In this document: one piece after another, positions 5,097 through 63,947 of the stretch
Position numbering within the stretch: position 1 is the first letter of the stretch
Layout of the letters: every line of letters starts with the position of its first letter
Assembly (NCBI GenBank): GCA_964372635.1
Contig: CAYJQW010000004.1
Location: 840 to 64,839 of the forward strand
Reading direction: 5' to 3'
DNA: 64,000 nt
From: an uncultured Candidatus Saccharibacteria bacterium
GTDB taxonomy: Bacteria > Patescibacteriota > Andersenbacteria > UBA10190
The notes under the pieces: model-generated
The model's input: only the letters and a program-made list of their open reading frames with translations
The model's database searches: none
What the model was told of the DNA's origin: nothing
Position numbers and translations under genes: made by a program

Positions 5097-6722
5097 GTGG
5101 CGTCATACAATAATGACATGACAACTATCAGCGGATGGCGTGTACTTATGTTAAAACTAAGAAGTTGGCCGGCTGTTGGACAAGAAAGTTCAATAAGGAG
5201 TTTCACAGAACGATTCTTACGAATTCTTATTTGGGTTTTGCCGTGGCTCGTGATAGCTGTTTTCACCTACATTTACATCTGGCTTGGTTTTTACAATGAA
5301 TTGCACTTAAGAAACGGTGTCGATCTCGGGACTTATAATCAGCTTCTCTATAATTTGTCATCAGGCCATAGCTTTCCACCGTTTAACAGTCTTAAAAATC
5401 AGATCGCCTGGGGTGATCATGCTCACTTCATTGTTATCTTGTTGACCCCGGTGTATTACCTTTTTCCAAGCTATCTGACTGTCATTGCTCTCCAGGTGTT
5501 AGCTATTACTACATCGGCTTGGGCATTATATAGCATTGCCCAGAAAACGATCAGGAACTATATATTTTCATATGTTATTCTATTCTCCTATCTTTTATTT
5601 TTTGGTGTTCAGTACGCTTTAAATTTTGATTTTCATCCCAATGTCTTAACAGCTGCTATTTTAGCTTGGAGTTTATATGCTCTTCATTTCAGAAAATGGC
5701 TGCTTTATTGGTTAGTATTCATATTAGGACTCCTAACGCGTGAAGATGCCGCAACCTTCTATGTCATGATCGGAGTTTATCTAGTGTTATTCCGACCAAG
5801 TATACCATTTGCTAAACGATGGACAGGAATAACTTGGGATAGTGTTAAAACTGTGGGGCTTGTGACCATTATCTTGGCGGGAGCATACTTCATTGGGGTG
5901 GTGTATTATCTTATGCCTCTCTGGCAACCAGATAATACAGCGCTGGCCTATTTTGATATTCCTGATAGCGCGCGTACGCCATTAGCCATCCTTTATTGGA
6001 TTGCAGGTAATCCAATTACGGTTATCCAAAACATGTTTGACACTTCCGCCAAAGTCAGCACGATCAGAAACCTGTTTCAATCATTTGGTTTTATACCCTT
6101 AATCACTCCGTTTACCTATTTAACAATCTTGCCAAACTTCCTCGCTCGATTTTTAAGTGGCGAAGAGCAGCGGCACATGACGCAGTTTCACTATGGAGCC
6201 AGCCTTGTGTCCCTACTGTCTTACGGTTCAATTCTAACAACTGTATTATTACAAAGGTCAGTCAAACATCTCTGGCAAAAAGTTATGAGGCAACAGCCGG
6301 TCTGGTCCTCTTTTATTATATCTACAGCAGTAGCAGCCTTGATATTTTTTGGTACATACACCGTGTCATTGCGTGATATTGATCTGCCTATTCACAGGCT
6401 TTATGATCGGGATTTTATTGAGCTTAAGTCTTTACCGCGCCCGGCTCGCGCCGCACTTGATGTTATGCGCCGGATCATTCCCGAAGAGGCTAGTGTGTCG
6501 GCGGCCAGCGGCTTAGTGCCAGCTCTATCTTCGCGGGAAAAAATATATAATTTTCCAGATGGACTGGAAACTTCTGTCGATTGGATCGTTTTGAGTGATG
6601 AGGGGAATACCTGGCCCTATCACAATGCTGAAATGAAAACGGCCATTAAAGAATTGCGTTTAAATTCCGACTATATTTTATCTTTTGATAACTACGGCAT
6701 TGTGGCCTTTAAGAAGAGATAA
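5097..6722 (+). CDS. DUF2079-like polytopic membrane protein (putative GT-C-type transferase)
   Basis: 541 aa with at least 10 TM helices. The N-terminal loop GVDLGTYNQLLYNLSSG resembles the DUF2079 signature DLG.F.Q..WN. The C-terminal ~120 aa are soluble. The GTG at 5097 may not be the true start; the first ATG is at 5118. Confidence 0.45.
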   Translation: MASYNNDMTTISGWRVLMLKLRSWPAVGQESSIRSFTERFLRILIWVLPWLVIAVFTYIYIWLGFYNELHLRNGVDLGTYNQLLYNLSSGHSFPPFNSLKNQIAWGDHAHFIVILLTPVYYLFPSYLTVIALQVLAITTSAWALYSIAQKTIRNYIFSYVILFSYLLFFGVQYALNFDFHPNVLTAAILAWSLYALHFRKWLLYWLVFILGLLTREDAATFYVMIGVYLVLFRPSIPFAKRWTGITWDSVKTVGLVTIILAGAYFIGVVYYLMPLWQPDNTALAYFDIPDSARTPLAILYWIAGNPITVIQNMFDTSAKVSTIRNLFQSFGFIPLITPFTYLTILPNFLARFLSGEEQRHMTQFHYGASLVSLLSYGSILTTVLLQRSVKHLWQKVMRQQPVWSSFIISTAVAALIFFGTYTVSLRDIDLPIHRLYDRDFIELKSLPRPARAALDVMRRIIPEEASVSAASGLVPALSSREKIYNFPDGLETSVDWIVLSDEGNTWPYHNAEMKTAIKELRLNSDYILSFDNYGIVAFKKR

Positions 6723-14176: not shown

Positions 14177-15016
14177 TTATTCATTGCTGGACTTAATTTT
14201 GTGAGCTACTAGCCCCCATTCATAGCCACGTTTTAGCCGGAAAAAATGATCGAGCCGTGAGATTAGTCTTAAGAGAGGATAGACGATACGCAGATACCCC
14301 AGCAGCTGACGGTTTCCATTAACATCACCTTCAGAAGCTGGTGAAAGCGCTAAATTGTAACCCGCTGTTTTCTGTTGGCTACGATTTTTTAAAATATAAA
14401 ATCCGTTGTAAGCCAATTCAACCATCTCGGTAAAAAAGAAAGAAAATAGGTCAAAATCCTTTACTATTAGTCCGGCTGAGTCAGTTAATTTTTGTAGGGT
14501 GGACTTTGAAAATCCCTCAACAACGTGACCATGAGCAGCTTTATCAATACCGAATACATTTTCTGCAAAGTGTCTCCAGAAATATGGCCGACCATCATCA
14601 GCTGGTGTGGTTAAGATCACAACACCATCTGGGGTAAGTAATTCGGACACCCGACGCATAAAAGAGGCCGGATCTTGAACGTGCTCTATGACGTCGAAGA
14701 TGGTCACGATTTTAAAAGAACTCCGCGACAGTAAGGGATTATATATATCAATTTCATGGACCAAGCCATGAACAATCTTTCTCGTCTCGGCCGCCGCCGC
14801 GGCATCTGTTTCAGTAAATTCCCAAGTACCACCAAGACGCTCCAGAAGAACACTAAGCGTACCAACACCACTACCAATATCCAAACAAGGACAATCCTTA
14901 GCTTTCTTTTGTAGAGCTTGAAGCACCTTGGGTTTTGCCCACAACCATTTTTCTTTTTTCCTCACACTGACTGCAAAAACACGTAGCTGCCACGACTCAT
15001 TTTGTGCTGTTTTCAT
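14177..15016 (-). CDS. class I SAM-dependent methyltransferase
   Basis: Motif I CLDIGSGVGTLSVLL and LTPDGVVILTTP. Its start overlaps the stop of the upstream GT39-like gene by 4 bp (15013..15016). Confidence 0.75.
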   Translation of the reverse strand: MKTAQNESWQLRVFAVSVRKKEKWLWAKPKVLQALQKKAKDCPCLDIGSGVGTLSVLLERLGGTWEFTETDAAAAAETRKIVHGLVHEIDIYNPLLSRSSFKIVTIFDVIEHVQDPASFMRRVSELLTPDGVVILTTPADDGRPYFWRHFAENVFGIDKAAHGHVVEGFSKSTLQKLTDSAGLIVKDFDLFSFFFTEMVELAYNGFYILKNRSQQKTAGYNLALSPASEGDVNGNRQLLGYLRIVYPLLRLISRLDHFFRLKRGYEWGLVAHKIKSSNE

Positions 15017-16515
15017 AACTTATTGACTTTGAAGATCCAAACATAAGGTAGTCCGTTAATTTTAATAAGATGTTCCGGTTTTGGTTTTCCCGGGCCAAGA
15101 TAACTGGCCATCATTTCAGTTTCGGCAGCTCCAGGGCCGCGCTCAAACATGGAGCGGTACAAAATAATATAATCAGCCGAATTATTATCAGTATACGATA
15201 GTGAATCAGAAGGACCGGCATAGAAATAAGCAAAGACACGGTTATAGTAACTATGTACTTTAGCCTGTGGCGCTTGCTCAGAAATCCAAGCGGCGGCACT
15301 TTCTAAACCCTCGCCCCAGCCAAGCTTATGATCGGATTCTATTGGGTACAGTTTGTTATATTGAGCTAAATAATATGGATGGAGCCTAACATCATCAGCG
15401 GCTAACCACATTATTAATATCAGCGTAATCAGGTAGCCTACCATTCTCGACACATATAAACTATTGGCGAGCCAATGAATTATTATTCGCAAGCCGAATA
15501 CGCCTGTTAAAATAAATGTGAGTAGGGTGAGCAGTATATACCGGTCACTTTTATCGGAACTGAAGCTTAGAATGATCGCATAGACAATGCCGGCTAGTAA
15601 AAGCCAAAATACGGTTCGGCCCATTTTTTTATATCGTCGCAGACCCAAGCCAATAAGACCGAAAGGCACAAGAATGGTAGTGATCGGTGTAAGTCGGAAT
15701 AATCCATCACGGGCGTAATACCACCAGCGAGAAGTTGTCTCTAGGCTGCGTGTACCCTGGGCATGCAGAGTAAGTCTTTCTGAAACGTAGTTATACACGC
15801 TATCTGCTCCCAGCCAAAGGGCTGGCCATAAAATATACGTAGCTAAGATTATTATTGCGATCCAGAGCAGTATCATGTTGATGCCAGATCGCCAGGAAAA
15901 ACGAAGTTGTAAGAAAGTGACCGTGAGAATAACCAGAGCAGTAGGTATGAGTATAATGGCAAACATTTTTGTAAGCAGGCTCCCGGCGGCCAGGATAGCA
16001 CTGGCAGCCAGATAATGTTTATTCAAGGGTTCTTTGTGATGCAACGGTTCTAGGGCTGCCAATAAGGCAACTAGACTTGCCAGATAAAAAAGGGCAAGCA
16101 GGGCATCAGTATGCGCCAAGCGACTGTGAGCTATAAGAAAGGGGTCAAGAGCCAGGAAGAAACCGGCTGTCAAACCCCAGCGGCTGCCCCACAGCCTTGT
16201 TAGAAAATAAGTTATTATTAATATCAAAATACTGGTTGCGACAGCCACTGCTGCTTGATCTGCGGCTAAGGAGTGCCACCGATTACTTAATCCGATTAGC
16301 CAGGCTGTTGTCACGCCAGGCTGACCAGCCACGAGAGTTTTATCAAACTGGCCGGTTGAAAAAGCTTGCATAAAGCTGGCACCACGGTTTTGCCACAAGG
16401 GTTCATCGACAGTTAGAATTGATCCTAGTTGAAAGAGCCGAGGACTAAATACAGCCAAGAGAAATAGTGCTATGACGATCAGTCGATTAGACTGAGACGG
16501 ATTAGAGGCAGTCAT
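15013..16515 (-). CDS. ArnT/PMT-type (GT39/GT83-like) membrane glycosyltransferase, polyprenyl-phosphate-sugar dependent (paralog family B)
   Basis: 500 aa, 11-13 TM helices. The first extracytoplasmic loop after TM1 carries the DE motif typical of ArnT/PMT-family GT-C enzymes (LGSILTVDEPLWQNRGASFMQAF). It is paralogous to 21967..23463. The stop overlaps the upstream GT2 start (16512..16515). Confidence 0.6.
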   Translation of the reverse strand: MTASNPSQSNRLIVIALFLLAVFSPRLFQLGSILTVDEPLWQNRGASFMQAFSTGQFDKTLVAGQPGVTTAWLIGLSNRWHSLAADQAAVAVATSILILIITYFLTRLWGSRWGLTAGFFLALDPFLIAHSRLAHTDALLALFYLASLVALLAALEPLHHKEPLNKHYLAASAILAAGSLLTKMFAIILIPTALVILTVTFLQLRFSWRSGINMILLWIAIIILATYILWPALWLGADSVYNYVSERLTLHAQGTRSLETTSRWWYYARDGLFRLTPITTILVPFGLIGLGLRRYKKMGRTVFWLLLAGIVYAIILSFSSDKSDRYILLTLLTFILTGVFGLRIIIHWLANSLYVSRMVGYLITLILIMWLAADDVRLHPYYLAQYNKLYPIESDHKLGWGEGLESAAAWISEQAPQAKVHSYYNRVFAYFYAGPSDSLSYTDNNSADYIILYRSMFERGPGAAETEMMASYLGPGKPKPEHLIKINGLPYVWIFKVNKL

Positions 16516-17207
16516 TTATGGCGTGCAAAACGGCGTCCTCGTAGTCGGTAGGCAAACAACATGGCCAAGGACTTAAAGCCATCGCGGTATGTTATTTTTT
16601 TACCCTCAGCATGCGTACGAGCGCGATAATTTGTAGGCAACTCCTTAATCTTGAATCTGTGATCCAAAATCTGAAGCGTGATTTCCATATCGAACTCAAA
16701 GCCAGTTTTCTCAAGGTGTAAAACTTTTACAACTTCTTTTGTAAACACTTTGTGACCGGTTTCAACATCTGTTAATCGTTGCCCAAGTAGAATGTTCGTT
16801 AGTATTGTCATAGCTTTATTCTCTAGACGCTGAATAAAGTATAATTGGTTTTGCTGCAAAAAACGGGAACCATAAACGACACTTGTCTCGCCGCGTAAGA
16901 TGGGGCTTATCAGACTTGGAATCACTGTAGGGTCGTATTCGCAATCATCATCCTGAACGACGATAATGTCGCCGCTGACATAACGTAAACCAGTCTTAAT
17001 TGCTCCACCCTTGCCAGTATTATGATCATGCAAAATAACTTTTACGTTTTTTAAACGCTGTAAGATTTCCCGACTACCGTCAGTAGAAAAATCATCGACG
17101 GCTATTATTTCATAAGGGATAGGATATTTTACAGCCTGAATCTGATTCACGGCTTGCTCTATAAAATCCCTATCGTTGTATACGGGAATTAGAATTGATA
17201 GTTTCAT
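16512..17207 (-). CDS. GT2 polyprenyl-phosphate sugar synthase (DPM1/ArnC/GtrB-like)
   Basis: KLSILIPVYNDRDFIEQAV, IAVDDFSTDGS and VVQDDDCEYDP give the GT-A DxD signatures. The small soluble form (231 aa) resembles dolichyl/undecaprenyl-phosphate sugar synthases. It is translationally coupled to the GT39-like gene downstream. Confidence 0.75.
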   Translation of the reverse strand: MKLSILIPVYNDRDFIEQAVNQIQAVKYPIPYEIIAVDDFSTDGSREILQRLKNVKVILHDHNTGKGGAIKTGLRYVSGDIIVVQDDDCEYDPTVIPSLISPILRGETSVVYGSRFLQQNQLYFIQRLENKAMTILTNILLGQRLTDVETGHKVFTKEVVKVLHLEKTGFEFDMEITLQILDHRFKIKELPTNYRARTHAEGKKITYRDGFKSLAMLFAYRLRGRRFARHK

Positions 17208-18180
17208 GGGTTACATGCTCACGCCAATAGGACATAAGATCAGGAATAGTTTTATTAAGAAAAGATATTTTTGGCTGCCAACCAGTAGCGAGACGAAACT
17301 TAGTGTTGTCCCCAATGATAATACCACCATCAGTTGGGCGGGGTCCGGCCGGATCCAGTTTCAATTCAATCGGAGATATTTCTGATCTGACTAACATCGT
17401 CTCATATATTTCTTTAATTTTAGTGCCCCGACCTGAGCAAACGTTATAAACTTCTCCTGGCTGACAAAACTCAACTGCTGCCACATAGGCCCGAGCAATA
17501 TCACGTACGTCTGTAAAATCGCGGACGGCAGATAAATCCCTATATGTCACTTTTGCTGGTACCAGACCCTGTTCAATTAAGGCTATGGTATGGGCCAAGT
17601 GGCTGTCACCAAAGGCTGTTGGTCGACGCGGTCCCGTATGATTGAAGACCCGTAATCTAATTATATTTAGTTGGTAGGTGTGCCAGTATTGAAACCCAAG
17701 ATAATCCTGACCAATCTTTGAAACTGCGTAGGGGGAGCCGGGTAGCAACTCGGCACTTTCCTGAATCGGCAACTTGTGTCGTTTGCTTAAGCCATATTCC
17801 TCAGACGACCCCGGGATAATAATTACGGGGTTGTAGGTTATGGTTTTTAACTGACGCAGTGTTTCGAGAATATTAGCTTGCCCGAGTATATTTGTTATAA
17901 GGGTGGCTTGCGGTGATTCCCATGACGTTCGCACATAACTTTGCGCAGCTAAATGCCAAATGACGCTTGGCCTAACCATCTCAAGCAGGGAAAATACAGA
18001 CGATTCATCGGTAATATCAACCTCATGAAGTTGAATCTGATCTTTAATATGCTGAATGTTCTGAAGTGACGCCTTAGGCTTTCGCGTACCATGAATTCGA
18101 TATTCAGAGTGTTCAGATAGTAATAGTTCAGCCAAGTGACTGCCCGTAAATCCCTCAATACCAGTTATCAATATATTCAT
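17170..18180 (-). CDS. NAD-dependent nucleotide-sugar epimerase/dehydratase (extended SDR family)
   Basis: N-terminal Rossmann motif ILITGIEGFTGSHL (GxxGxxG) and catalytic YAVSK (YxxxK). The track start at 18243 would overlap the next gene. ATG is verified at 18180 (MNILITG) and is preceded by GAGAGAG. Confidence 0.75.
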   Translation of the reverse strand: MNILITGIEGFTGSHLAELLLSEHSEYRIHGTRKPKASLQNIQHIKDQIQLHEVDITDESSVFSLLEMVRPSVIWHLAAQSYVRTSWESPQATLITNILGQANILETLRQLKTITYNPVIIIPGSSEEYGLSKRHKLPIQESAELLPGSPYAVSKIGQDYLGFQYWHTYQLNIIRLRVFNHTGPRRPTAFGDSHLAHTIALIEQGLVPAKVTYRDLSAVRDFTDVRDIARAYVAAVEFCQPGEVYNVCSGRGTKIKEIYETMLVRSEISPIELKLDPAGPRPTDGGIIIGDNTKFRLATGWQPKISFLNKTIPDLMSYWREHVTHETINSNSRIQR

Positions 18181-18205
18181 AGTCTCTCTCTTGTATAAGG
18201 GAGTC

Positions 18206-19840
18206 TTAAAGCCAACGCAATGTGTGAACAGGCACAATTTCAAGAACGCCAGTGTCCCAAACTCTTTCTTTTTTTACCTCTGTCTTCACAATCGTATTGT
18301 CGACTGTCAACCGGCGGACTATCTCAAGAATACGGGGATCATCAGGTGTCTCAATTAAATAGACAATCTTGTACTGGCGTAACAGGTCAATTAGATCTTC
18401 GGGGTCCGCAGCTGGATACGTATTTAAGTAAAAACCCAGCTGCTGATTGCCTAGCTCTGTACCGGACTCTATTGTTCCAAAATAAAGAGTTGCAACAGCT
18501 TGATCAGTCGTTAAAGCAACAGGTTTAGACTCATGTGCTAAAGAAACTATCGATCGATACAAAGCATAGCCACGATAATTCTCTTCCCACGCACGTCCGG
18601 TTGCTTGTCGCATAAGGGTCTGGCTTTCCGAGCTCACTATCCAAATCGCCGCAGTCAGCAATGTTACGGCTAAGGCCTTCGGCCAAATCCAACTTTTCGA
18701 TTGAATATATAATCGATATGTCCCGGACAGTAAAGCGCTAAAGCCCGCGGCTGCAGTAAAATAATATACTGCAGATAAGGGAGCGACGTAGCGACTATAT
18801 ACCCACCACCATGACAGTAGTAATGTGTATCCAGTACCAGCGATAATAATCGGTAAACCAGCTTTTCCGTTTCTTATGATTATCCAAGGCACTCCAAGGA
18901 TCGCCAAGATGCTGAGCCACCAAGTCGTTGATAATAATATTCGGTTTGCCGCACCTGATTGCGGATTTTGACTGATCTCAAAGTTGGGGATTGACCAAGC
19001 TTTGCTGAAACCGGCACCATTGAGCATTAGTAAACCATTGATCGGGATTTGTTTAATCTCACCAAAGCCTCCATCAGCGGAGATTGCATCTGCCACATAT
19101 GGCAAATTAGTGATTGAACCGTGAATTGCAAGATGCGCTGGTATCCAGGCAATGATTGCTGCTACTGGAATCACCGACGCTCTCAAAACTTGTCGCCATG
19201 AAAGCCTGATCCACAAAAGCGGCCATAAAAGGCTGGCCACAATTAATCCTTCGTAACGTGTGAATATGAGGCAAGTAGTTACAACACCAAGCCAGAACAA
19301 CTGACGTCGGGACGATTTCGGTTTCAAAATAACTATTGTGACACAGTACACTGTGAGTACCATGAAAAAAACGAAGGTACTATCAGCTAATGGCCGAATG
19401 GCATTCAGCATTAGTAGCGGATCAAAAAGTGACAAGCCTAGGAATAGAAGTAGAGCGGCTCGATAAATTTTTAAGCGCCTACCCAGTGCATAAAGCGTTC
19501 CAACGCTAATGGCCGAGGCAGTTAGACTTATTATTACGCTCATTGGTATATATTCAATTGGGAATAATCGCGAGATTAGTATTAGAATACCGTACATTGG
19601 CAAGCGTTTCTCATGAGGTGGATATGAAAGATAGCCCAAGTTTTTGGCAATATGTTGGAAATTAAAGGCATCGCCAGCAGGCATAATACGACGTTCGAAG
19701 GCTATCGGGGCACGTACCAGCAGGGCAAAGATAATCAATAAAATTATGATTATGCTATCAATTTGGTAGGCAGTCACAGATTTAGTGTAGTTTGGTGCAC
19801 CTAACACGTACAGACGATCATAACCAGTGATGGCCGCCAA
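18206..19840 (-). CDS. polytopic membrane protein, GT-C-like, function unassigned
   Basis: 544 aa with ~12 TM helices in the first 420 aa. The soluble C-terminal ~120 aa are likely extracytoplasmic. Confidence 0.45.
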   Translation of the reverse strand: MAAITGYDRLYVLGAPNYTKSVTAYQIDSIIIILLIIFALLVRAPIAFERRIMPAGDAFNFQHIAKNLGYLSYPPHEKRLPMYGILILISRLFPIEYIPMSVIISLTASAISVGTLYALGRRLKIYRAALLLFLGLSLFDPLLMLNAIRPLADSTFVFFMVLTVYCVTIVILKPKSSRRQLFWLGVVTTCLIFTRYEGLIVASLLWPLLWIRLSWRQVLRASVIPVAAIIAWIPAHLAIHGSITNLPYVADAISADGGFGEIKQIPINGLLMLNGAGFSKAWSIPNFEISQNPQSGAANRILLSTTWWLSILAILGVPWIIIRNGKAGLPIIIAGTGYTLLLSWWWVYSRYVAPLSAVYYFTAAAGFSALLSGTYRLYIQSKSWIWPKALAVTLLTAAIWIVSSESQTLMRQATGRAWEENYRGYALYRSIVSLAHESKPVALTTDQAVATLYFGTIESGTELGNQQLGFYLNTYPAADPEDLIDLLRQYKIVYLIETPDDPRILEIVRRLTVDNTIVKTEVKKERVWDTGVLEIVPVHTLRWL

Positions 19841-21188: not shown

Positions 21189-21926
21189 TTAAGCTCGACG
21201 CCCAACTCCTAAAATGTTTTTGGTAAAAATTGTCGTATCGGTGCGTCCGTACAATTTGAATATCAAGTACCATAACTTATTCAATAACGCCGCCGCTACT
21301 CGAGCTGTTACATTCAACAGGATGTTAGGCGTAACGTAAATATCGGTTCCATAAATTTTAACTTTGTCAAAATCGGCCATGAGTAGAGTTTGCTTCAAAC
21401 TATGCTGGTCGAAGCCAACCTCATGGGTGATATCAATATACCTACCATCATTACCCAGCAGAGGATTACCCATATTCGGCACTTTAACCAGAAAGACGCC
21501 GCCAGGTTTCAGGTTGGTTCTGATCAACTCAAGCATGTGCCACATAGTTGGCTTAACCTGATGTTCTAAGACGTCATTTAGAATGAATGCATCGACCGGG
21601 GCCGTGAGATTTTCCAGATAAGCAGTTATTTCTGACTTGAGTACAGGTAATTCTTTCCTCTGACAAAAAGCAATGACCTCACTACCCACGTCCACGCCAA
21701 GTATATTCTTATAGCCAGACCGCCTCAAAAAATAAAGAAAATGACCCAGACCGCTACCCAAATCGACAATGCGAGCATCTCGATTTGTTGGCAAATGCGG
21801 TAAATAATTCCGGCGAAAATAACGTTCCTGAATGCTAAACTCGGTATCCCCTTCACGAGCACCACCAAAATGCTGGGATAAGTATTTTGCATATGTCTGA
21901 CTTACATCCATCGGTGATTGTCGCAT
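21189..21926 (-). CDS. class I SAM-dependent methyltransferase
   Basis: Motif I IVDLGSGLGHFLYFL and LKPGGVFLVKVPN. Confidence 0.75.
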   Translation of the reverse strand: MRQSPMDVSQTYAKYLSQHFGGAREGDTEFSIQERYFRRNYLPHLPTNRDARIVDLGSGLGHFLYFLRRSGYKNILGVDVGSEVIAFCQRKELPVLKSEITAYLENLTAPVDAFILNDVLEHQVKPTMWHMLELIRTNLKPGGVFLVKVPNMGNPLLGNDGRYIDITHEVGFDQHSLKQTLLMADFDKVKIYGTDIYVTPNILLNVTARVAAALLNKLWYLIFKLYGRTDTTIFTKNILGVGRRA

Positions 21927-23524: not shown

Positions 23525-25291
23525 TCAGTTTTTTTTGTGATACAGAATGATCGGCTGTTTTGGTTCGTTGCTAACTGTAACTATTGGCTCAAAGTCTTGT
23601 TCAAGGAGAGTTCGCAGAGGCTGTGTCTCTTTGGCTCCGGGATTAAAATAAACATCCGTTGTTCGCCAGTCAACGACAATCCAATTTACATCGCGTGCTA
23701 CTTGAGAAGTTAAGTCAGGCAGATCTGGAAAATATATGCGGCGAATCGATGCCGGCATAAAACCGGCTCTCTCGGCCAAGTACCAGCCAGGATGAGTATA
23801 CAGTCCATATAAAGACCTGTGTCCTAAGAAGGCAAATACTGGTTGAGCGGTAAATATCGTTTCATTTTCTGCTACTAGGTTTTTAATTTGCTCGGCCATT
23901 TTCAGAGCCGCTCTTGTCGTAATCGTTCCACGATATTGTCTGTCCGATATGGCGAGGTATGGATAAGTTATTGAAAATATCAAAAACGCTGCCATTAATA
24001 TTGATAGCGGGAAAGTGCCGGGCAAACGCATGGACCAAAGTGACTTAAATAAAATAGCACTCGTAATCCCGGCGGCAATAGCTAGGGGTGGTATTGCTTC
24101 TAAGACATAATAAGGCGTTGGCTCACGGCCCCAATAATGATAAAATACCAGAACACTACCCAGCCAAATAGCTAATCTTAATATAGGTATGTTGATCGAT
24201 TTTGAGGTAGAGTCACGTTTTTGGTTTATCTTTGAACCAGAATAAGAAAGTAAAGTTAGCCCACATATAGCGAACAGGCCAAGATAAGAAATATTTGCGT
24301 ATTGACGAACCATCTTCATAGCATCACCACTCCAGTACTCTCCAATATTATTCAATACGGGGCCATACAGATAGTAGGCACCAGTTATAAGTGCAGACAA
24401 AAACGCCAGTTTTAAATACCAAGTGCCTGCCCGAAAGCTTAAACCGATCCCTCCAATTGCAAGAATCACCAATGGCAACCCTTCATACCATAGAGGAATA
24501 AACCCTCGAAAGAGCTGTTGTTGAGGACTAACCGATTCTTGGGTGTAAGCCGTCCGTTGATCATTGGCAATTAGTGTTGCATCAGCATTAAAAAAGAATG
24601 CTGTCTTAGGCCAACCATATAAAGGATAAATGATCGCTATGGTCATTGCTAGAAGGAATGCACCGACTAGACAAAACATTATCACCGAACGCCATGACTT
24701 AGTCTGAATAATCAAGACCGTTAAAATAATTGGCAAGGCCGAGATCGCCGTTGCTCTGGTCAGCGTAGCTAGAAAGAAGAAAAACGCTGCAATAATGATG
24801 TCGCGGCGGCTCACATGATTTCCGCTCACCAGCCATAAACTTAATAGTATCAGCGTTAATTCTAAGGAAAAATGCATGACGTTTGTTGTCAAGCTAACTG
24901 GTGCGGCCGATAATCCCCACAATATGGCCGCAACTATACCGACAGTTGTTGAATTAGTGAGGCGACGAGCCACTAGGTAGAGTAGCGGAATCGACATCAC
25001 GTGAAATAAACTAGAAAACAGGCGACTGGCAAAAATGGTTTGTCCGAGCAGTACTTGCCAACCTTTAAGAAGATATAGAAAAACTGGGCCTTTTGTAGCA
25101 CCAAATTCGCGGAAAGGCAGAACCTTCGCACTAGCCTGCCAAGCGTCCTGCATGTAGGCACTCTCGTCTTCGACAATATTGAGAATCGGAATGAGGTTAA
25201 TATGGATGGCCATAGCGGCCAGCATAATACCGCCAATTATTGTCGCAGAATTAGTAGCCAGTTTTATGATTGATATGGACATACGAATCAA
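23525..25291 (-). CDS. GT-C-like polytopic membrane glycosyltransferase (paralog of 11753..14173)
   Basis: 588 aa. NIVEDESAYMQDAWQASAKVLPFREFGATKGPVF and FTAQPVFAFLGHRSLYGLYTHPGWYLAERAG match the corresponding blocks of the 806-aa protein at 11753..14173. About 12 TM helices. Confidence 0.5.
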   Translation of the reverse strand: MIRMSISIIKLATNSATIIGGIMLAAMAIHINLIPILNIVEDESAYMQDAWQASAKVLPFREFGATKGPVFLYLLKGWQVLLGQTIFASRLFSSLFHVMSIPLLYLVARRLTNSTTVGIVAAILWGLSAAPVSLTTNVMHFSLELTLILLSLWLVSGNHVSRRDIIIAAFFFFLATLTRATAISALPIILTVLIIQTKSWRSVIMFCLVGAFLLAMTIAIIYPLYGWPKTAFFFNADATLIANDQRTAYTQESVSPQQQLFRGFIPLWYEGLPLVILAIGGIGLSFRAGTWYLKLAFLSALITGAYYLYGPVLNNIGEYWSGDAMKMVRQYANISYLGLFAICGLTLLSYSGSKINQKRDSTSKSINIPILRLAIWLGSVLVFYHYWGREPTPYYVLEAIPPLAIAAGITSAILFKSLWSMRLPGTFPLSILMAAFLIFSITYPYLAISDRQYRGTITTRAALKMAEQIKNLVAENETIFTAQPVFAFLGHRSLYGLYTHPGWYLAERAGFMPASIRRIYFPDLPDLTSQVARDVNWIVVDWRTTDVYFNPGAKETQPLRTLLEQDFEPIVTVSNEPKQPIILYHKKN

Positions 25292-25432: not shown

Positions 25433-26173
25433 ATGTTAAATCATATGATTGAATCCAAAAAAAATGTCATTTTAATACCAACATTTAATGAGGCACCCAA
25501 TATCGTTCTCATGCTTCAGGCGATCTCCCGGGTCGATCGGGATTTGAATATTCTGGTAATTGACGATGCTTCTCCCGATGGAACAGCCGATCTTGTCTCG
25601 GCCATGAAAAAAAATCACTTTGGAATAATGATCTTGCATCGAACAAGCGACCCCGGTTTCGCGCAATCCTATATTAATGGTATCAAGCTGGTTTTGGAGC
25701 AAGGTAAGTATGATGTTATTACAACTATGGACGCGGATTTCTCTCATGATCCAGCCGAAATCCCGCCTATGATGCGCTTAATATTTAACGGCGCTGATGT
25801 TGTGATCGGATCTCGCTATGCCAAATTACAGGATTTTTCGCACATCCCACTCTGGCGTAGACTGCTTAGCCGCTTTGCAAATTTTTATGTCCGATCAATC
25901 TTACGATTGCCAATTAGAGATTGTACTTCAGGATATACGATGTGGCGAGCTTCAGCCCTGGCAAACATTAATCTCAAGACAATACGAACGGAAGGATATG
26001 GTTTTTTATTTGCCCTAAAATATCAAGCTTATCGTCAGGGATTGCAGGTTGTTGAGCATCCGGTTAAATGGCCTGATCGTCATCTCGGTGCCTCAAAAAT
26101 GAATTTCAAAAGAATCTTCGAATCCGCATTACTACCTTGGAAAATTATTTGGAATAGTGCCAACGATAAATAA
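25433..26173 (+). CDS. GT2 polyprenyl-phosphate mannose/glucose synthase (DPM1/Ppm1-like)
   Basis: ATG at 25433. VILIPTFNEAPNI, VIDDASPDGTADLV and TTMDADFSHDP are classic DPM1-like motifs. Soluble, 246 aa. Confidence 0.75.
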   Translation: MLNHMIESKKNVILIPTFNEAPNIVLMLQAISRVDRDLNILVIDDASPDGTADLVSAMKKNHFGIMILHRTSDPGFAQSYINGIKLVLEQGKYDVITTMDADFSHDPAEIPPMMRLIFNGADVVIGSRYAKLQDFSHIPLWRRLLSRFANFYVRSILRLPIRDCTSGYTMWRASALANINLKTIRTEGYGFLFALKYQAYRQGLQVVEHPVKWPDRHLGASKMNFKRIFESALLPWKIIWNSANDK

Positions 26174-26179
26174 TAGCCT

Positions 26180-27550
26180 TTACTCTGCTCCGATAACGCG
26201 AAACTTTGGCAAGGGAACTATAAATTTACCTCCATTTTCCAGATATTGACTTTCTCGGTTTTTGAATTCAGCTAGAAAGTGCCAGGGCAGTATTAAAAAG
26301 TAATCTGGATTGTCATCTCGAGCCTTTTTTTCAGAGATAATTGGAATGTTTGTTGATACCGTACGCTTACCCCATTTTGCCGGATTACGCTCCGCGGCAG
26401 CAGTGATAACCTTATGGTTAAGATTAAAATATTGTAAGAGCGTATTTCCTTTTGTTGATGCCCCATAAACATAAATAGTTTTACCTGTAGATTTTTCTTG
26501 AACGATGAAATCAACAACTTGCCTTTTAATCTGGGCGACACGATCCCTAAACAATTGATAGGGAATAGTTGTTGCCAGATGCATTGCATTTTCTTTAAAT
26601 CTGAGTTGAGCCAGACGCTCTGATGCACCGGAACGAGGTGGCAGCTTACTTCCCTTATGGGTAATAAATGTTCGATAGCTGCCACCATTAACATTGTTTA
26701 ATTCAACGTCAATAACTTTTAGATCATGTCTTTTGAGTAGAAATTCAAGTGAACTGAGCGAATAGTATTCCAAATGTTCATGACAAATATTATCAAAGAT
26801 GTTATCGGCTAGCATCACCGGTAAATAGGCCATCTGAATTATCCAAAGTCCATCCGGTGCCAAAATTTCTCTAATATCAGCTACAAATTCATTAGGTTGC
26901 TCGAGATCATAAAACATAGCAATACTAGTTACAGCCTGAGCCTTTACTTTTTTACCTACCTTATCTTTAAATAAGTTTGCCGTGAAGAAATCGTTGATGA
27001 TAGTTGCTGATGTATTCTTCGCATAGGGCATCAGATTTATTGCTGGCTCAAATCCAACTTTATTTAAATCTCGCACCTGATATGAATTTAGTAATGTGTT
27101 GTCATTGCTACCCGTGTCCACCACGATACTATTCTTTGTTAGGGGAATTAATTCAGCTACACTTTTTGTAATATCAGCCAGAGCAACGCGCATAGTTTGG
27201 TTAACGCCTGAACGATACCAGTAATTACGATACATATACTGCTGATCTACAGTATGTTTAAGCTGAAGTAATCCGCAGCCGTTTCGACTCGGATCGCACA
27301 AGATAAGTTCCAAAGGTGCACTGGGAGTCAGACTATTCTTAGAAACGAAATCTGAAATACTTTGTACTCCCAATGACAGCACAGGCACAAGCATAGTCCC
27401 GCCACAAACGCGGCAGTTTGTGCGTGTAGTCACAGACAGATTAGTCTTGTGAGTAAGACTTACTGAGGACGTTTTGAGTTGTGGAGCAGCCGTTGTTATA
27501 GTAATCGACAGTATACTTATGAACACGCCAGTCGTAAAATCAGCGACCAA
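26180..27550 (-). CDS. SAM-dependent C-methyltransferase-like protein with N-terminal Cys-x2-Cys zinc-ribbon (TylCIII/NDP-hexose C-methyltransferase family)
   Basis: CRVCGGTMLVPVLSLGVQSISDF matches the N-terminal putative zinc-binding domain of the TylCIII-type family. The methyltransferase motif VVDTGSNDNTLLNSY follows, with a C-terminal methyltransferase extension domain (FIVPLPKFRVI). The track start at 27550 is TTG and overlaps the divergent gene. A GTG at 27433 would give M-TTRTNCRVCGG, matching family N-termini, so the true start is uncertain. Confidence 0.55.
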   Translation of the reverse strand: MVADFTTGVFISILSITITTAAPQLKTSSVSLTHKTNLSVTTRTNCRVCGGTMLVPVLSLGVQSISDFVSKNSLTPSAPLELILCDPSRNGCGLLQLKHTVDQQYMYRNYWYRSGVNQTMRVALADITKSVAELIPLTKNSIVVDTGSNDNTLLNSYQVRDLNKVGFEPAINLMPYAKNTSATIINDFFTANLFKDKVGKKVKAQAVTSIAMFYDLEQPNEFVADIREILAPDGLWIIQMAYLPVMLADNIFDNICHEHLEYYSLSSLEFLLKRHDLKVIDVELNNVNGGSYRTFITHKGSKLPPRSGASERLAQLRFKENAMHLATTIPYQLFRDRVAQIKRQVVDFIVQEKSTGKTIYVYGASTKGNTLLQYFNLNHKVITAAAERNPAKWGKRTVSTNIPIISEKKARDDNPDYFLILPWHFLAEFKNRESQYLENGGKFIVPLPKFRVIGAE

Positions 27551-28226
27551 TCACAAATGGGAACGTATTTGGGATGATGTTTGGCGAACAGGAGCTGCCG
27601 GCCGCACCATTTCGTGGTTACGTCAAAGGTATAGTGCGATGCTTTTGCATGTTATCAAGCCTTACTTAAAGTCTCAGGCACATGTACTTGAACTTGGATC
27701 AGGAACGGGGACATTACTACTTTCCTTAGCAGAAGATATAACTGAAGGAGTAGGTCTAGATATTTCCAATGAGGCCATTGCCATTGCTAACAAGAACCTG
27801 CAAAAAAAACTAGTTAAGAATATAAGTTTCATTAAGGCTGACTGCCGCCACGTACCTTACCAAGGACGATTTGACGTAGTGTACAGCGCTGGCCTGATTG
27901 AACATTTTTTTGCGCAAGACATTGAAATTGTTCGGCAGCATCTTAAGGCAGCAAAACCGGGAGGAACTGTTGTAATCAGTGTGCCTTATGCCTATTCCTT
28001 ACACAGTTTGCATTATATGCTGACACGGCCACGTTTATCACGATGGCTTTGGCCTTGGTCACGCGAGCGCAATTTTCAACTTTTTTATTCTCGTCAGCGT
28101 CTGCGCCGACTAGCACTAAATGTTAGCCACTCCCACAGAATTTTCCTGCTTCCACCCTGGCCTGTCGGTTTGTTATTGGGAATTATTGTTCTTGTCATCA
28201 ATAAAAAAGAAAATATTCAGGTGTGA
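27519..28226 (+). CDS. class I SAM-dependent methyltransferase
   Basis: ATG verified at 27519 (MNTPVV); the track start at 27474 is TTG. Motif I VLELGSGTGTLLLSL and AKPGGTVVISVP. A C-terminal hydrophobic segment (LLPPWPVGLLLGIIVLVI) suggests a membrane anchor. Confidence 0.7.
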   Translation: MNTPVVKSATNHKWERIWDDVWRTGAAGRTISWLRQRYSAMLLHVIKPYLKSQAHVLELGSGTGTLLLSLAEDITEGVGLDISNEAIAIANKNLQKKLVKNISFIKADCRHVPYQGRFDVVYSAGLIEHFFAQDIEIVRQHLKAAKPGGTVVISVPYAYSLHSLHYMLTRPRLSRWLWPWSRERNFQLFYSRQRLRRLALNVSHSHRIFLLPPWPVGLLLGIIVLVINKKENIQV

Positions 28227-28289: not shown

Positions 28290-30404
28290 ATGTCTAAAAT
28301 ACTTAAAAAGCACATTTCTGTGCTGATTTTGTATACAGCCCTAGTTCTGTTAATGACATTGCCAGTTGTCTTGAAGCTTACAACGCATGTCGCCGGATCA
28401 GGTGGCGACCCCTGGCAGACTATGTGGAGATTTGAAGATCGTCTGTCAGCGGCACAAGCAGCACGCGATAATTCTCAATTAGGACCATTTATCTTCCGAG
28501 AATTTCTTGGTGGTGGCGAACCGCGTCTAATCAACAATTCAGTTTGGCCATGGATGGGTCTTCATACGACCCTTGGAGAGCCCTTGGCTTATAATGTTGT
28601 TTGGTTGCTGTCTTATATCATGTCTGGATTCACCATGTGGCTGCTGACTAGATGTCTGATTCCGGCAAATAGGACATTTTCAATCCTAAATTTTAAATTG
28701 GCAAATAATGACATTGCAGCCATTATGGCTGGAATATTATATATGTTTGCCCCATATCATACCGCCCATTCCTTTGGTCATTTCGGCGCCATGCAAACTC
28801 AATGGCTGCCGCTGGCTATTCTTCTAACTCTTCTTTTCAAGGAGCGTCAGACATTTATACGTGCGCTTGGTTTAGTTGTCGTGTTGACGATCCAATCATG
28901 GAGTGAGCACCACTATCTGCTCTGGTATGCCCTGTTTGTTAGTCTTTATCTTGCTTGGCATTGGCAATATTTTCGACAGTTGACACTTAAACGCTCTAAA
29001 GTACTCCTTCAAACTTCATTCGTCATACTCTTACTTATATTAGTTCTACTGCCATGGTGGCCAACCGCTCGTCTGGCTTTTTCCGGGCAATCATCGCTTG
29101 TGTTAGGTAGTGATCAGACCATTCGATTTTCAGCTGATCTTTTTTCATATATTATTCCTGCTTCATTTCATCCCATATGGGGAGATGCTGCTAACACTTT
29201 ATTTGCTAAAAAATTTACTGGCAATGTTAGTGAAGCGACGCATTTTCTGGGCTGGGTGCCCCTCCTATTAGTTTTGTTCTTTCATCAGCGTATTCCAAGA
29301 AAGCATAAGATCTTTTGGGGTGTGGCGACATTAATATTCGGAATTATAAGCCTAGGACCACGATTGCATATTATCGGCCATATTTTGCCAATACCGCTCC
29401 CGTGGGCATTAATTGATTCCTGGCCCGTATTTAATGCAGTGCGCGCCGTTGGGCGAGCTAGTGTAATTGTTTTAATAGCCTTTTGTATATTATTCGGATG
29501 GGTGGTAGCGACTCAAATAAAACGACCTATAATATTCATACTGATAGGCACTGTCATTTTGCTTGAATTTCTCTTTATGCCCGTACCTTTGCAGTCAGCT
29601 ATATTGTCCGATGTTTACAAGACTGCAGCCAAACTTCCAGGATCAACCATAATTGAGTTGCCGGCTGCGACCAATTATACAGCAGCGTCGCGTGCGCTCT
29701 ATGCAGAAGGTATCCACCGCAAGTCTGTTATTGGGAATATTGCTCTCGAGCGATCTCTGGGCAACGATATTCTTGAAGAAATTCGCTCAATGCCGGCTCT
29801 GCGGCAACTCTTATATCTCCGGACGACTGATTTACAAGCACGGCGACCTGACTTTTTTAACCAAGAACTTAAAGAATCATTAGCCGATACTTTACGTAAA
29901 CTTGATGTTGGCGGTATTATTATTCATCTAGATTCATTATCGGCCTCGCAGGTTAGAATTACCCGAGACTTTCTTGAGCAAGATATAGGTTTTAGGCCAC
30001 AACCTTTTCAAGATGCCATTTTATATGAAGTACCTCAATCTTTTCGTGACAGTGGTGATGGTATTTTCATCAGTCGCGATAACCAGTGGGTCAATGTTCG
30101 ATCTGACATTGAACGTGGCACAGAGGCTTCGGTCGTACATGAAGCCTCGATTCGGCTTTTTAATACTAAAAACAAAGTAACTACGGTTGATTTGTCATAT
30201 ACTGTTGATTCTTCTTTGTCAGATCCACTTAATATCAGTGTCGGCAATAATGGCGGTAGTGATGTTTATTTAAGAAAGGATAATTCAGGCAGGTATGATT
30301 TTAGTATTGCAATCCCGGCTAACTCAAGAGTCATAATTTCATTTAGAAACAACATGACCCAGCCTGCTACTATTTTTGATCCACGCTTTATTGTGGCCAG
30401 ATAA
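28290..30404 (+). CDS. large polytopic membrane protein with C-terminal extracytoplasmic domain (GT-C-like), function unassigned
   Basis: 704 aa. About 13 TM helices fill the first ~430 aa. A first-loop motif HVAGSGGDPWQTMWRFED is present. The C-terminal ~270 aa are hydrophilic and beta-rich. Confidence 0.45.
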   Translation: MSKILKKHISVLILYTALVLLMTLPVVLKLTTHVAGSGGDPWQTMWRFEDRLSAAQAARDNSQLGPFIFREFLGGGEPRLINNSVWPWMGLHTTLGEPLAYNVVWLLSYIMSGFTMWLLTRCLIPANRTFSILNFKLANNDIAAIMAGILYMFAPYHTAHSFGHFGAMQTQWLPLAILLTLLFKERQTFIRALGLVVVLTIQSWSEHHYLLWYALFVSLYLAWHWQYFRQLTLKRSKVLLQTSFVILLLILVLLPWWPTARLAFSGQSSLVLGSDQTIRFSADLFSYIIPASFHPIWGDAANTLFAKKFTGNVSEATHFLGWVPLLLVLFFHQRIPRKHKIFWGVATLIFGIISLGPRLHIIGHILPIPLPWALIDSWPVFNAVRAVGRASVIVLIAFCILFGWVVATQIKRPIIFILIGTVILLEFLFMPVPLQSAILSDVYKTAAKLPGSTIIELPAATNYTAASRALYAEGIHRKSVIGNIALERSLGNDILEEIRSMPALRQLLYLRTTDLQARRPDFFNQELKESLADTLRKLDVGGIIIHLDSLSASQVRITRDFLEQDIGFRPQPFQDAILYEVPQSFRDSGDGIFISRDNQWVNVRSDIERGTEASVVHEASIRLFNTKNKVTTVDLSYTVDSSLSDPLNISVGNNGGSDVYLRKDNSGRYDFSIAIPANSRVIISFRNNMTQPATIFDPRFIVAR

Positions 30405-59682: not shown

Positions 59683-60834
59683 ATGAAGCTAACCCTCATC
59701 ACTGAGTATTGGGGAGAGCGCGGTGGAGCGGAAAACTACCTTTGGAATATAGGTCACTTTCTTGCACCAGGCAGCCTAACAGTTATCGCGCCTCGCTCTG
59801 GCCATAGTAAATTGCCTATTGGTAGTGGCATCAATAACATCTCTATTCAGCGTTTACGCTGGCCGCTACTTTGGCCTAGTTGGTTGCCACTGTTTTTACA
59901 TCTTTATCGTCAAGCTCGCCAGGGTGAGCTGGACGTTTTGCTTTGTGGCAAAACATTATTTGAAGGACATCTTGGATATTTCTTGAAAAAATATGCCGGT
60001 GTGCCCTATATAGTTTTTACTTATGGTATGGAGATTGAATATTGGAACCAGCATAGACGGTCCTTTAAGAAAATGTTGAAGGTGTTGCGCCGAGCTGATC
60101 TTATAATCTACATCAATGAAGTAACCAAGAAGAAACTCATTGAATTTGGTATCGCCCAAGATCAAATAATCAAGATACAGCCTGGTGTTACTGCGAGACA
60201 TCTGAACAAAACAAGCCGGCCAATGATTGAATCACGGCTGCGCTACTATAATATTAAACAGCCTTATGTCCTGGCAGTAGGTCGGCTGATTGCTCGTAAG
60301 GGGTTTGATGTTTTAATCGAGGCTTTCGCTGGTCTTGATCAAACTATATTTAGCCAGCACCGACTGGTGATTATCGGTGATGGTCCCGACCTTCGGCATC
60401 TCCAATCTGTTGCCGAGAGAAATTTTATAGGTACCAGCATTACCTTTTTGACAAAGGTACCTGATAAAGACTTACCATCCCTGTATGCCGGCGCGGAAAT
60501 CTTTGCACTCACCCCATGTGAAATTAGTGGTGAGCTAGAAGGCTTCGGTATTGTTTATTTGGAAGCAGCCGCCCATGGTATACCAGCTATTGGTACAAAA
60601 ACTGGCGGTGTTCCTGAAGCAGTCCTCGACAATAAAACAGGTTTAATTATAATGCCAGCTGATACTTCGGGGTTAACTAGGGCTCTAAAGCGATTACTGG
60701 TAGATGCCGAACTTCGAGCTAATTTTGGTCTTGCCGGACAACAACGTGTGTTAAAGCAATTCCAATGGGAGACAAAAAGTGCTCAATTGCAAACAGCTAT
60801 TGAAAAGATCCTCGCGCACACGCAGAGTTATTAG
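59683..60834 (+). CDS. GT4 family glycosyltransferase
   Basis: EGFGIVYLEAAAHGIPAIGTKTGGVPEAV is the EX7E motif; 383 aa. Confidence 0.85.
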   Translation: MKLTLITEYWGERGGAENYLWNIGHFLAPGSLTVIAPRSGHSKLPIGSGINNISIQRLRWPLLWPSWLPLFLHLYRQARQGELDVLLCGKTLFEGHLGYFLKKYAGVPYIVFTYGMEIEYWNQHRRSFKKMLKVLRRADLIIYINEVTKKKLIEFGIAQDQIIKIQPGVTARHLNKTSRPMIESRLRYYNIKQPYVLAVGRLIARKGFDVLIEAFAGLDQTIFSQHRLVIIGDGPDLRHLQSVAERNFIGTSITFLTKVPDKDLPSLYAGAEIFALTPCEISGELEGFGIVYLEAAAHGIPAIGTKTGGVPEAVLDNKTGLIIMPADTSGLTRALKRLLVDAELRANFGLAGQQRVLKQFQWETKSAQLQTAIEKILAHTQSY

Positions 60835-60848
60835 CTAGTTATTTAATT

Positions 60849-63503: not shown

Positions 63504-63507
63504 AGAA

Positions 63508-63547
63508 GAAAGGCTCCACCGCAATGCGGTGAAGCCTTTAGTTTTTT
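63508..63547. terminator. bidirectional intrinsic terminator between convergent genes
   Basis: aaAGGCTcCACCGCaatGCGGTGaAGCCTTtagtttttt: a GC-rich stem of about 12 bp with one bulge, followed by a T-run on the plus strand and by an A-run complement on the minus strand. Confidence 0.5.
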
Positions 63548-63947
63548 AGTGGCGCAAGTTATCGAGAATAGTCCTAAATTGCTCCACTCCTGGGTCGACA
63601 GATTCAGGTATGAAGATGATATACAAAGGTTTTTTTCCATCTTCATCTACAATCGTACAAGTCCACCGAAGTTCGATTTTGGCGTTCTTGTAAGACGGCA
63701 TCCCTATCTGTGGTACGACCACGACTTGGCAACCAAGCTGCTGAAAATCTTTTATTCCGACTTTCAATTTTTCGTAGGAAGTAAATTTCATATTACACCC
63801 TGGGTATCTGATCGGATAGAGACGAGGTGGATCAGTTCGGTTATCTCGGCCATAACCCGTCCAGACATGCTTGGCTTTTAGACCGGTGAATTCCGCCTGC
63901 AACGAAGTCCAAGCGGCCTCTCCGTACCTGGTCTTAAATTCCCTCAT
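63546..63947 (-). CDS. hypothetical protein, 5' end beyond the window (frame stays open upstream to position 64000)
   Basis: The minus-strand ORF ends at the bidirectional terminator. The frame upstream of the ATG at 63947 has no stop before the window edge, so this is the C-terminal part of a longer gene. I recognise no motif. Confidence 0.35.
   Translation of the reverse strand: MREFKTRYGEAAWTSLQAEFTGLKAKHVWTGYGRDNRTDPPRLYPIRYPGCNMKFTSYEKLKVGIKDFQQLGCQVVVVPQIGMPSYKNAKIELRWTCTIVDEDGKKPLYIIFIPESVDPGVEQFRTILDNLRH

Follow-up and report, generated by a model that had tools for sequence, protein, structure and literature searches.

Two questions are raised by a pair of divergently oriented methyltransferase genes in the genome of an uncultured Candidatus Saccharibacteria bacterium (Genome Taxonomy Database lineage Patescibacteriota; Andersenbacteria; UBA10190): what the larger of the two proteins does, and where its translation begins. 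The pair was analyzed within a 64,000-nt stretch of DNA (hereafter, the window) that spans positions 840-64,839 of the forward strand of contig CAYJQW010000004.1 (assembly GCA_964372635.1). A sequence-only reading of the locus had identified the larger protein as a TylCIII-like sugar C-methyltransferase carrying a Cys zinc ribbon, and had proposed alternatives to two overlapping start codons.

Identification of the C-methyltransferase

The long open reading frame (ORF) on the minus strand, 26180..27550(-), comprises 456 aa when counted from a mechanically chosen TTG, and its translation contains TRTNCRVCGGTMLVPVLSLGVQSISDF and VVDTGSNDNTLL. Residue numbers of the C-methyltransferase follow this long-ORF numbering unless stated otherwise. 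The two motif strings quoted in the sequence-only reading, CRVCGGTMLVPVLSLGVQSISDF and VVDTGSNDNTLL, are both present in this translation, and the family assignment built on them was upheld by Pfam, phmmer and Foldseek matches. The Methyltransf_13 and Methyltransf_14 profiles, which that reading had named as the check to be made, matched far beyond chance: the zinc-ribbon domain Methyltransf_13 lies at 27230..27415(-), corresponding to residues 46-107 (PF08421, 4.8e-11, profile positions 1-62, the whole profile), and the C-terminal domain Methyltransf_14 at 26207..26692(-) (PF08484, 1.4e-45, profile positions 2-160 of 160). The class I S-adenosylmethionine (SAM)-binding domain at 26708..27169(-) (PF13489, Methyltransf_23, 4e-09) contains a VVDTGSNDN motif (27089-27124), the codon for Asp215 (26906-26908) and a FDNICHEH motif (26774-26797), all on the minus strand. 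A further ORF nested at 26293-26694(-) was discarded as a mechanical, out-of-frame product of the same gene.

A phmmer search against the PDB returned end-to-end alignments with three characterized enzymes, MtmC (4rv9, 3.9e-53), TcaB9 (6.5e-39) and KijD1 (8e-37), in which VVDTGSNDN pairs with IVEIGCNDG of TcaB9 and VLEIGSNTG of MtmC. An AlphaFold2 model computed from 24 homologues (mean predicted local distance difference test score (pLDDT) 85.5, pTM 0.84) gave a concordant picture when compared to the PDB with Foldseek: the best 18 matches were solely to MtmC, KijD1 and TcaB9, with target-normalized TM-scores (TMt) of 0.90-0.94 and root-mean-square deviations of 1.9-2.4 A, beyond which E-values fell to ~1e-8 with query-normalized TM-scores (TMq) of ~0.3, and every other family remained at TMq <=0.33. 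The zinc ligands are Cys46, Cys49, Cys85 and Cys92, the second knuckle being of the Cx6C type; in the alignment of 24 sequences Cys85 and Cys92 are invariant, Cys46 and Cys49 are absent only from truncated gene calls, and all of the ~150 invariant columns are retained in the window protein. Judged by these alignments and by the predicted structure, 26180..27433(-), which encodes 417 aa plus a stop codon from its most likely start (see below), is assigned as an intact nucleotide-sugar C-methyltransferase of the TcaB9/MtmC/KijD1/TylCIII fold family. By analogy with these enzymes, it would methylate the carbon adjacent to the 4-keto function of a nucleoside diphosphate (NDP)-4-keto-hexose, presumably C-3, via an enolate formed with His/Glu assistance that attacks SAM.

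Comparison with characterized and predicted relatives

The D-mycarose 3-C-methyltransferase/4-ketoreductase of mithramycin biosynthesis in Streptomyces argillaceus, MtmC, is both the best full-length sequence match and the best fold match (TMt 0.90, 29% identity), and shares with the window protein the three-domain layout, the Cys4 zinc site and the catalytic motif ending in EH. It differs in having His and Tyr (FDTIYHEH) where the window protein has Asp215 and Cys256, in a second zinc knuckle of the CxxC type, which it shares with TcaB9, and in its context, since MtmC acts on a deoxythymidine diphosphate (dTDP)-2,6-dideoxy sugar in an antibiotic cluster whereas the window gene lies in a surface-glycan island. 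The dTDP-sugar C-3'-methyltransferases TcaB9 of Micromonospora chalcea (3ndi, mutants 4e2w-4e31) and KijD1 of Actinomadura kijaniata (5t64) likewise align over the full length (~1e-38) with TMt of 0.92-0.94, but at only 22-24% identity, and their substrate is a dTDP-amino-trideoxy sugar. By analogy, the window enzyme would work like MtmC, TcaB9 and KijD1, but two of its substrate-contacting residues differ from theirs, as its nucleotide carrier probably does.

The same Pfam architecture is found in TylCIII, EryBIII and AviG1 and in CBU_0691 of Coxiella burnetii, the predicted virenose C3-methyltransferase. The latter, 42-44% identical to the TylCIII type, has been proposed to methylate a 4-keto-6-deoxyhexose, an activity that is predicted only, and one of the two virenose routes derived in silico leads from GDP-mannose through GDP-mannose dehydratase (GMD) to C3-methylation (PMC3539893). 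As far as this published description allows the two to be likened, the guanosine diphosphate (GDP)-mannose/GMD route is also the one that gene context suggests for the window enzyme.

A subfamily with Asp and Cys in the active site

In order to compare active sites, catalytic positions of TcaB9 were taken from the titles of PDB mutant entries and the residue differences in their chains (H181N, Y222F, E224Q, H225N and Y76F). Three of them are preserved in the window protein, with Tyr76, Glu224 and His225 corresponding to Tyr110, Glu258 and His259, whereas His181 and Tyr222 correspond to Asp215 and Cys256, so that CHEH of the window protein pairs with YDEH of TcaB9 in the alignment. All five window residues (Y110, D215, C256, E258 and H259) are invariant across the 24-sequence alignment. 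The TcaB9-type His181/Tyr222 combination is absent from the subfamily, which has invariant Asp and Cys at these positions; the Pfam definition does not demand His and Tyr there. The catalytic Glu-His pair is kept, and the alignment places the protein in a distinct Asp/Cys subfamily.

The closest proteins, 60-65% identical, come from metagenome-assembled genomes (MAGs) of Patescibacteria, also known as the candidate phyla radiation (CPR), which bear the labels Andersenbacteria or 'Saccharibacteria'. At 47-60% identity, relatives are spread over DPANN and other archaea, Planctomycetes, Dehalococcoidia, Nocardia, Blastochloris and others; within CPR bacteria, DPANN archaea, Planctomycetes and Actinobacteria, members of the subfamily show 50-65% identity. 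Given this broad taxonomic spread, and the fact that all 8000 of the 8000 candidates scored in the homologue search passed the 1e-10 threshold, the subfamily is very large and widespread; it is also uncharacterized, its members carrying generic names in their source databases ('class I SAM-dependent methyltransferase'), with one homologue from the Joint Genome Institute (JGI) labelled as an NDP-4-keto-2,6-dideoxyhexose 3-C-methyltransferase.

Start codons of the divergent pair

The divergent partner, designated here MT2, is a generic class I SAM methyltransferase (Pfam Methyltransf_31/25/23/11) at 27519..28226(+), 235 aa long from ATG 27519. The pairing described in the sequence-only reading is real: the head-to-head arrangement is kept in nine related loci (L001-L007, L081 and L082), and MT2 is 54-60% identical to the divergent neighbor in L001-L007 and L081. 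The starts that had been regarded as annotated, 27474 and 27550, are instead simply the first TTG codons, taken mechanically, of the longest ORFs, 27474..28226(+) (250 aa) for MT2 and the 456-aa frame for the C-methyltransferase. The public record starts elsewhere, and the 77-bp overlap between the 5' ends of the two genes is a longest-ORF artefact. For MT2, ATG 27519, suggested previously, is in frame and translates to MNTPVVKSATNHKWERIWDD, and homologues open with MN(I/N/T)KTEQIWD at the same aligned ATG, which identifies this codon as the predicted MT2 start.

The start of the C-methyltransferase is less straightforward. Its sole public record, P0001, is a 404-aa protein, 100% identical, that starts at ATG 27394 (Met53), downstream of the first CxxC. 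A start at this codon would cost the protein two zinc ligands and is therefore wrong. Homologues P0035, P0056, P0057 and P0070 are truncated in the same way, and truncation before the first CxxC is a recurrent gene-calling error in the family. Upstream of Cys46, the canonical in-frame start codons are TTG 27550, GTG 27526 and GTG 27433, located 45, 37 and 6 aa before the Cys, and no ATG, GTG or TTG is found in any frame between 27503 and GTG 27433. The related loci indicate where the gene used to begin. In L001 only one start is possible: an ATG located 24 aa ahead of the Cys and preceded, 4 codons earlier, by a stop. An equivalent ATG is present in L002, L003, L005, L007, L081 and L082, and a GTG in L006. 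Translation from this codon gives the relatives a disordered tail of 23-25 aa, and the distance between the start codons of the two divergent genes is 22-24 bp in L001, L002, L003, L005, L007, L081 and L082, and 16 bp in L006. In two independent DNA alignments, the ATG/GTG start of seven relatives aligns with an ACG (27493-27491) in the window. The spacer between the MT2 start codon and this ancestral position, 27494..27518, is 25 bp long; therefore, the geometry of the starts has been conserved and the start codon itself has not. It follows that the 85-bp divergent promoter region postulated earlier is not ancestral; GTG 27433 would be the replacement for a codon that is now ACG.

Since the ancestral codon has become ACG, and GTG 27433 is the first canonical codon downstream of it and coincides with the onset of the predicted fold, we consider GTG 27433 the most likely translation start, with slightly better than even confidence. 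The model leaves residues 1-36 at pLDDT <50 and places the beginning of its first strand at residue 40, which is the residue encoded by this GTG. The earlier proposal of GTG 27433 thus holds insofar as the codon is in frame and a reasonable start, but the argument then given for it, a family-typical N-terminus, does not: the number of residues before the first Cys ranges from 4 to 35, with poor conservation, over 120 homologues, and from 19 to 30 in the nearest relatives, and by this comparison a 6-aa N-terminus would be tolerable yet atypical of the nearest clade. Translation from GTG 27433 leaves upstream an in-frame open stretch, 27434..27550(-), which holds the ACG, GTG 27526 and TTG 27550 and is probably not coding, but a 5' leader or the relic of an N-terminal tail. 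Shine-Dalgarno scoring was dropped as a means of choosing among starts. A Shine-Dalgarno core precedes 4 of 47 ORFs against a background of 7%, and the GAGGA before TTG 27474 is uninformative; the genome does not use Shine-Dalgarno sequences and, therefore, ribosome-binding sites cannot decide between starts.

The 25-bp spacer also contains promoter-like elements on both strands. A palindrome, AGTATACT, at 27510-27517 places a TATACT hexamer on each strand, and a related (A/G)TAT(A/G)CT box occupies the same place in the relatives. On the minus strand, TTTACG-17-TATACT spans 27538..27510, with the TATACT box running from 27515 to 27510; on the plus strand, TTGAGT-17-TATAGT with a TG extension spans 27474..27502, with TATAGT at 27497-27502. 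In the relatives, equivalent ATACT and TGnTATAnT boxes are found 15-16 nt upstream of each start, and they occur at the same positions in the window. A riboswitch or structured leader at 27415-27505 was considered and ruled out, that interval having no Rfam match at E<=1 and no significant RNA structure (fold z-score -0.9). Separately, start codons throughout the window are preceded at 6-7 nt by -10-like hexamers more often than chance would give (7 observed versus ~2.5 expected), as exemplified by TATAGT-6-ATG at 28290 and 59683 and TATACT-7-GTG at 3138(-), with a further example at 5118; the proximity of these boxes to the start codons suggests leaderless mRNAs at the heads of operons.

Other readings of the C-methyltransferase start were weighed against the same data. 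The ancestral position might still be in use, either because ACG 27493 initiates inefficiently or because a consensus or sequencing error has put ACG into the MAG in place of ATG; in both cases a 26-aa tail would result. The exact alignment of the ACG with the ATG/GTG of seven relatives, the 25-bp spacer and the distance of 16 nt from the -10-like box, both of which match the relatives, and the fact that a single transition separates ATG from ACG all speak for this reading. ACG is, however, a very poor initiator in bacteria, and a second assembly in which to check the base was not found: the protein cluster has one member, and an exact-pattern scan of metagenome contigs gave 0 matches. We regard continued use of the ancestral position as improbable, at roughly a one-in-five level of belief.

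Only a little less credence is given to a true overlap of the two genes, with translation starting at GTG 27526 or TTG 27550. These starts would overlap the MT2 start by 8 and 32 bp, respectively, and add a partly hydrophobic extension of 37-45 aa, MFISILSITITTAAP. Both codons are canonical, the frame is open up to a TGA just upstream of 27550, and the remaining two frames of 27434-27493 have stops. In addition, the tail that would be translated from 27434-27493, KTNLSVTTRTNC, weakly resembles the tails of relatives (NNVSTRTSC, THLNIILRTSC). Such a resemblance would fit translation from further upstream and, together with a frame that stays open for 45 codons before the Cys codon, counts against GTG 27433. 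The hydrophobic extension, however, is found in none of the 120 homologues compared, in L001, L003 and L005 the frame is closed by a stop 4-7 codons before the ATG, residues 1-36 are predicted to be disordered, and the conserved -10-like box at 27515-27510 lies downstream of both codons. Finally, decay of the gene into an incipient pseudogene after the change of its ancestral ATG to ACG is very improbable, given an uninterrupted 417-aa frame that keeps every invariant column, the four Zn ligands and the catalytic pair, and an in-frame GTG at the fold boundary.

Related loci and the nucleotide carrier

Neighboring genes were counted in 80 related loci, the count for family 2 glycosyltransferases (GT2) including the window as an 81st. 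The commonest neighbor of the C-methyltransferase is an extended short-chain dehydrogenase/reductase (SDR), present within 5 kb in 47 of the 80 loci and within 300 bp in 26. A true GDP-mannose 4,6-dehydratase, with a strict GMD motif, occurs in at least 13 of the 80, and in 8 of these it is adjacent and on the same strand; the representative of the SDR cluster matches PDB entry 1n7g at 8e-94, and the SDR of L054, at 502 bits, exceeds the NCBIfam gmd equivalog cut-off of 415. The notion that all neighboring SDRs are GMDs was rejected, since GalE-like and 6vo6-like enzymes share the single-linkage cluster with true GMDs; the partners are heterogeneous, exceptions including a 6vo6-like SDR in Nocardia and a GalE-like neighbor in L001. 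Nucleotidyltransferase neighbors occur in 15 loci, with mannose-1-phosphate guanylyltransferases as best matches, and a GT2 family resembling dolichol-phosphate mannose synthase (DPMS) is encoded no more than 5 kb from the C-methyltransferase in 31 of 81 loci, with the two genes side by side in 15.

Within the window, a Pfam scan covered all ORFs except the last three, at 59683-63947. The only SDR among the scanned ORFs is an extended SDR at 17170..18243(-), a candidate supplier or reducer of a GDP-4-keto-sugar. In the PDB it is closest to GDP-6-deoxy-D-lyxo-4-hexulose reductase (2pk3, 3.9e-56) and GDP-D-glycero-D-manno-heptose 4,6-dehydratase (7us5, 1.9e-55), and it falls below every NCBIfam cut-off. 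No nucleotidyltransferase was found among the scanned ORFs. As for the genes expected of a GDP-mannose-derived 6-deoxy-3-C-methyl-hexose of the virenose/evalose type, GMD and guanylyltransferase-like genes are present in related loci, and in the window only the GDP-sugar-like SDR. Gene content of this kind points to GDP as the carrier of the sugar substrate, a reading to which we give about an even chance.

The TylCIII analogy drawn in the sequence-only reading, by which the substrate would be a dTDP-2,6-dideoxy sugar, fares less well, as gene context points to a GDP-linked sugar and two TcaB9 active-site residues are replaced. In its full form, the enzyme would be a classical TylCIII/EryBIII-like dTDP-deoxysugar C3-methyltransferase yielding a mycarose-type 2,6-dideoxy product. 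All solved relatives do use dTDP-sugars, and the JGI label mentioned above names such a substrate type. The scanned window ORFs, however, include no RmlA, RmlB, 2,3-dehydratase or 3-ketoreductase, the neighbors in related loci are GMD, guanylyltransferase-like and DPMS-like, and neither His181 nor Tyr222 is retained. Hence we judge a dTDP-linked substrate unlikely.

A glycan-biosynthesis island around the pair

The order of genes around the pair is conserved in relatives as GT4, GT4, a 704-aa DUF6311-type membrane protein, MT2, the C-methyltransferase, GT2 and PMT_2, with MT2 divergent from the C-methyltransferase and the latter convergent with GT2. The GT2 gene, at 25433..26173(+) (PF00535), encodes a protein similar to dolichol/polyprenol-phosphate sugar synthases: its sole PDB relative is the dolichol monophosphate mannose synthase of P. 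furiosus (5mlz, 2e-25), and its near-matches in NCBIfam are the polyprenyl-phosphate sugar synthases AglJ, PpgS and ArnC. Next to it, at 23525..25291(-), lies a membrane glycosyltransferase of the GT-C type (PMT_2, PF13231, 2e-10), syntenic in L004, L006, L081 and L082, so that the arrangement of a DPMS-like GT2 beside a GT-C/PMT_2 is present in the window and syntenic in relatives. We propose that the branched sugar would be loaded onto polyprenyl phosphate by this GT2, as the probable next step, and then moved to a surface glycan by the GT-C at 23525-25291, the probable final transferase. The same gene logic, from a modified nucleotide sugar through a polyprenyl-phosphate sugar to a GT-C, is seen in the Arn-type route (the GT2 ArnC and the GT-C ArnT) and with DPMS, although the window has no Arn enzymes and the likeness is one of pathway layout only.

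MT2 reached no NCBIfam cut-off and its PDB relatives are unspecific; it may be a lineage-specific accessory that adds a further methyl group, probably O-linked. Its C-terminus (window 28140-28226) is hydrophobic, with the pattern FLPPWPxGLLLGIIVxxI conserved in all eight homologues (19-residue Kyte-Doolittle hydropathy (KD19) 2.4), and could be a membrane anchor or simply the last buried beta-strand of the Rossmann fold. A second MT2-like methyltransferase of 245 aa, belonging to the same similarity cluster, is encoded at 21189-21926(-), in a position that is syntenic in L001-L007 (GT4, MT2-like, PMT). Directly beside the MT2/C-methyltransferase pair, L001 (2255-5178) and L003 (2252-5226) carry a second C-methyltransferase paralogue (422 aa) that shares an operon with an SDR and a DPMS-like GT2, amounting to a duplication of the module in that lineage.

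More broadly, the scanned ORFs of 1-59568 all fit a single glycan-biosynthesis island, which is unusually dense for a small CPR genome. It comprises around ten GT4, six GT2, two GT9 and three PMT/PMT_2 (GT-C-type) glycosyltransferases, several large membrane proteins without a Pfam match, five SAM methyltransferases including the C-methyltransferase, flippases of the MurJ/Wzx type, a polysaccharide deacetylase, a glycerophosphotransferase and an asparagine synthase. One of the membrane proteins, the 704-aa multi-pass product of 28290-30404(+), has no Pfam match but is 46% identical to the syntenic 666-aa protein (DUF6311) of L081; its place beside MT2 is shared by L006, L081 and L082, and it could represent a further GT-C-like transferase. 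Another module, with tightly overlapping genes at 14177-18243(-), combines the SDR (17170-18243) with a GT2 (16512-17207), a PMT_2 (15013-16515) and a methyltransferase (14177-15016), and by analogy its logic would be Arn-like, with nucleotide-sugar modification, loading onto a lipid phosphate and transfer outside the membrane.

Discussion

Taken together, the family assignment, the proposed pathway and the start codons form an explanation of the locus that we hold with considerable confidence as a whole. In addition to the open frame and the upstream tail considered above, several observations weigh against it. The replacement of His181 and Tyr222 means that substrate or regiochemistry may differ from those of the solved enzymes. 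There is no dehydratase in the immediate module, the only SDR found being 9 kb away and below all curated cut-offs. The closest relatives have generic GalE-like SDR partners, and the assignment of a GDP carrier relies mostly on more distant loci. Lastly, the number of promoter-like boxes does not exceed that in shuffled sequences (2 found versus 0.9 +/- 1.0).

The locus does not overturn current understanding, and the gene is ordinary apart from the ACG at the usual start position. Its immediate consequence is a corrected annotation: the public protein is missing one half of the zinc site, an error shared by at least four further entries of the family. The change from ATG to ACG in a conserved, tightly packed head-to-head pair provides a small natural case of start-codon relocation in a genome that does without Shine-Dalgarno sequences. 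Beyond this locus, we put forward more tentatively, as a possibility in which we have somewhat less than even confidence, that the Asp/Cys enzymes constitute a separate class of the TcaB9 fold that C-methylates derivatives of GDP-4-keto-mannose or GDP-4-keto-heptose, the branched sugars being passed by a DPMS-like GT2 and a GT-C to the surface of CPR and DPANN cells. GDP-linked C-methyl sugars delivered by a lipid carrier would then be a likely part of the surface glycans of these organisms and, if this proposal is true, the subfamily would represent a widespread, previously undescribed means by which ultrasmall prokaryotes furnish their envelopes with C-branched sugars.

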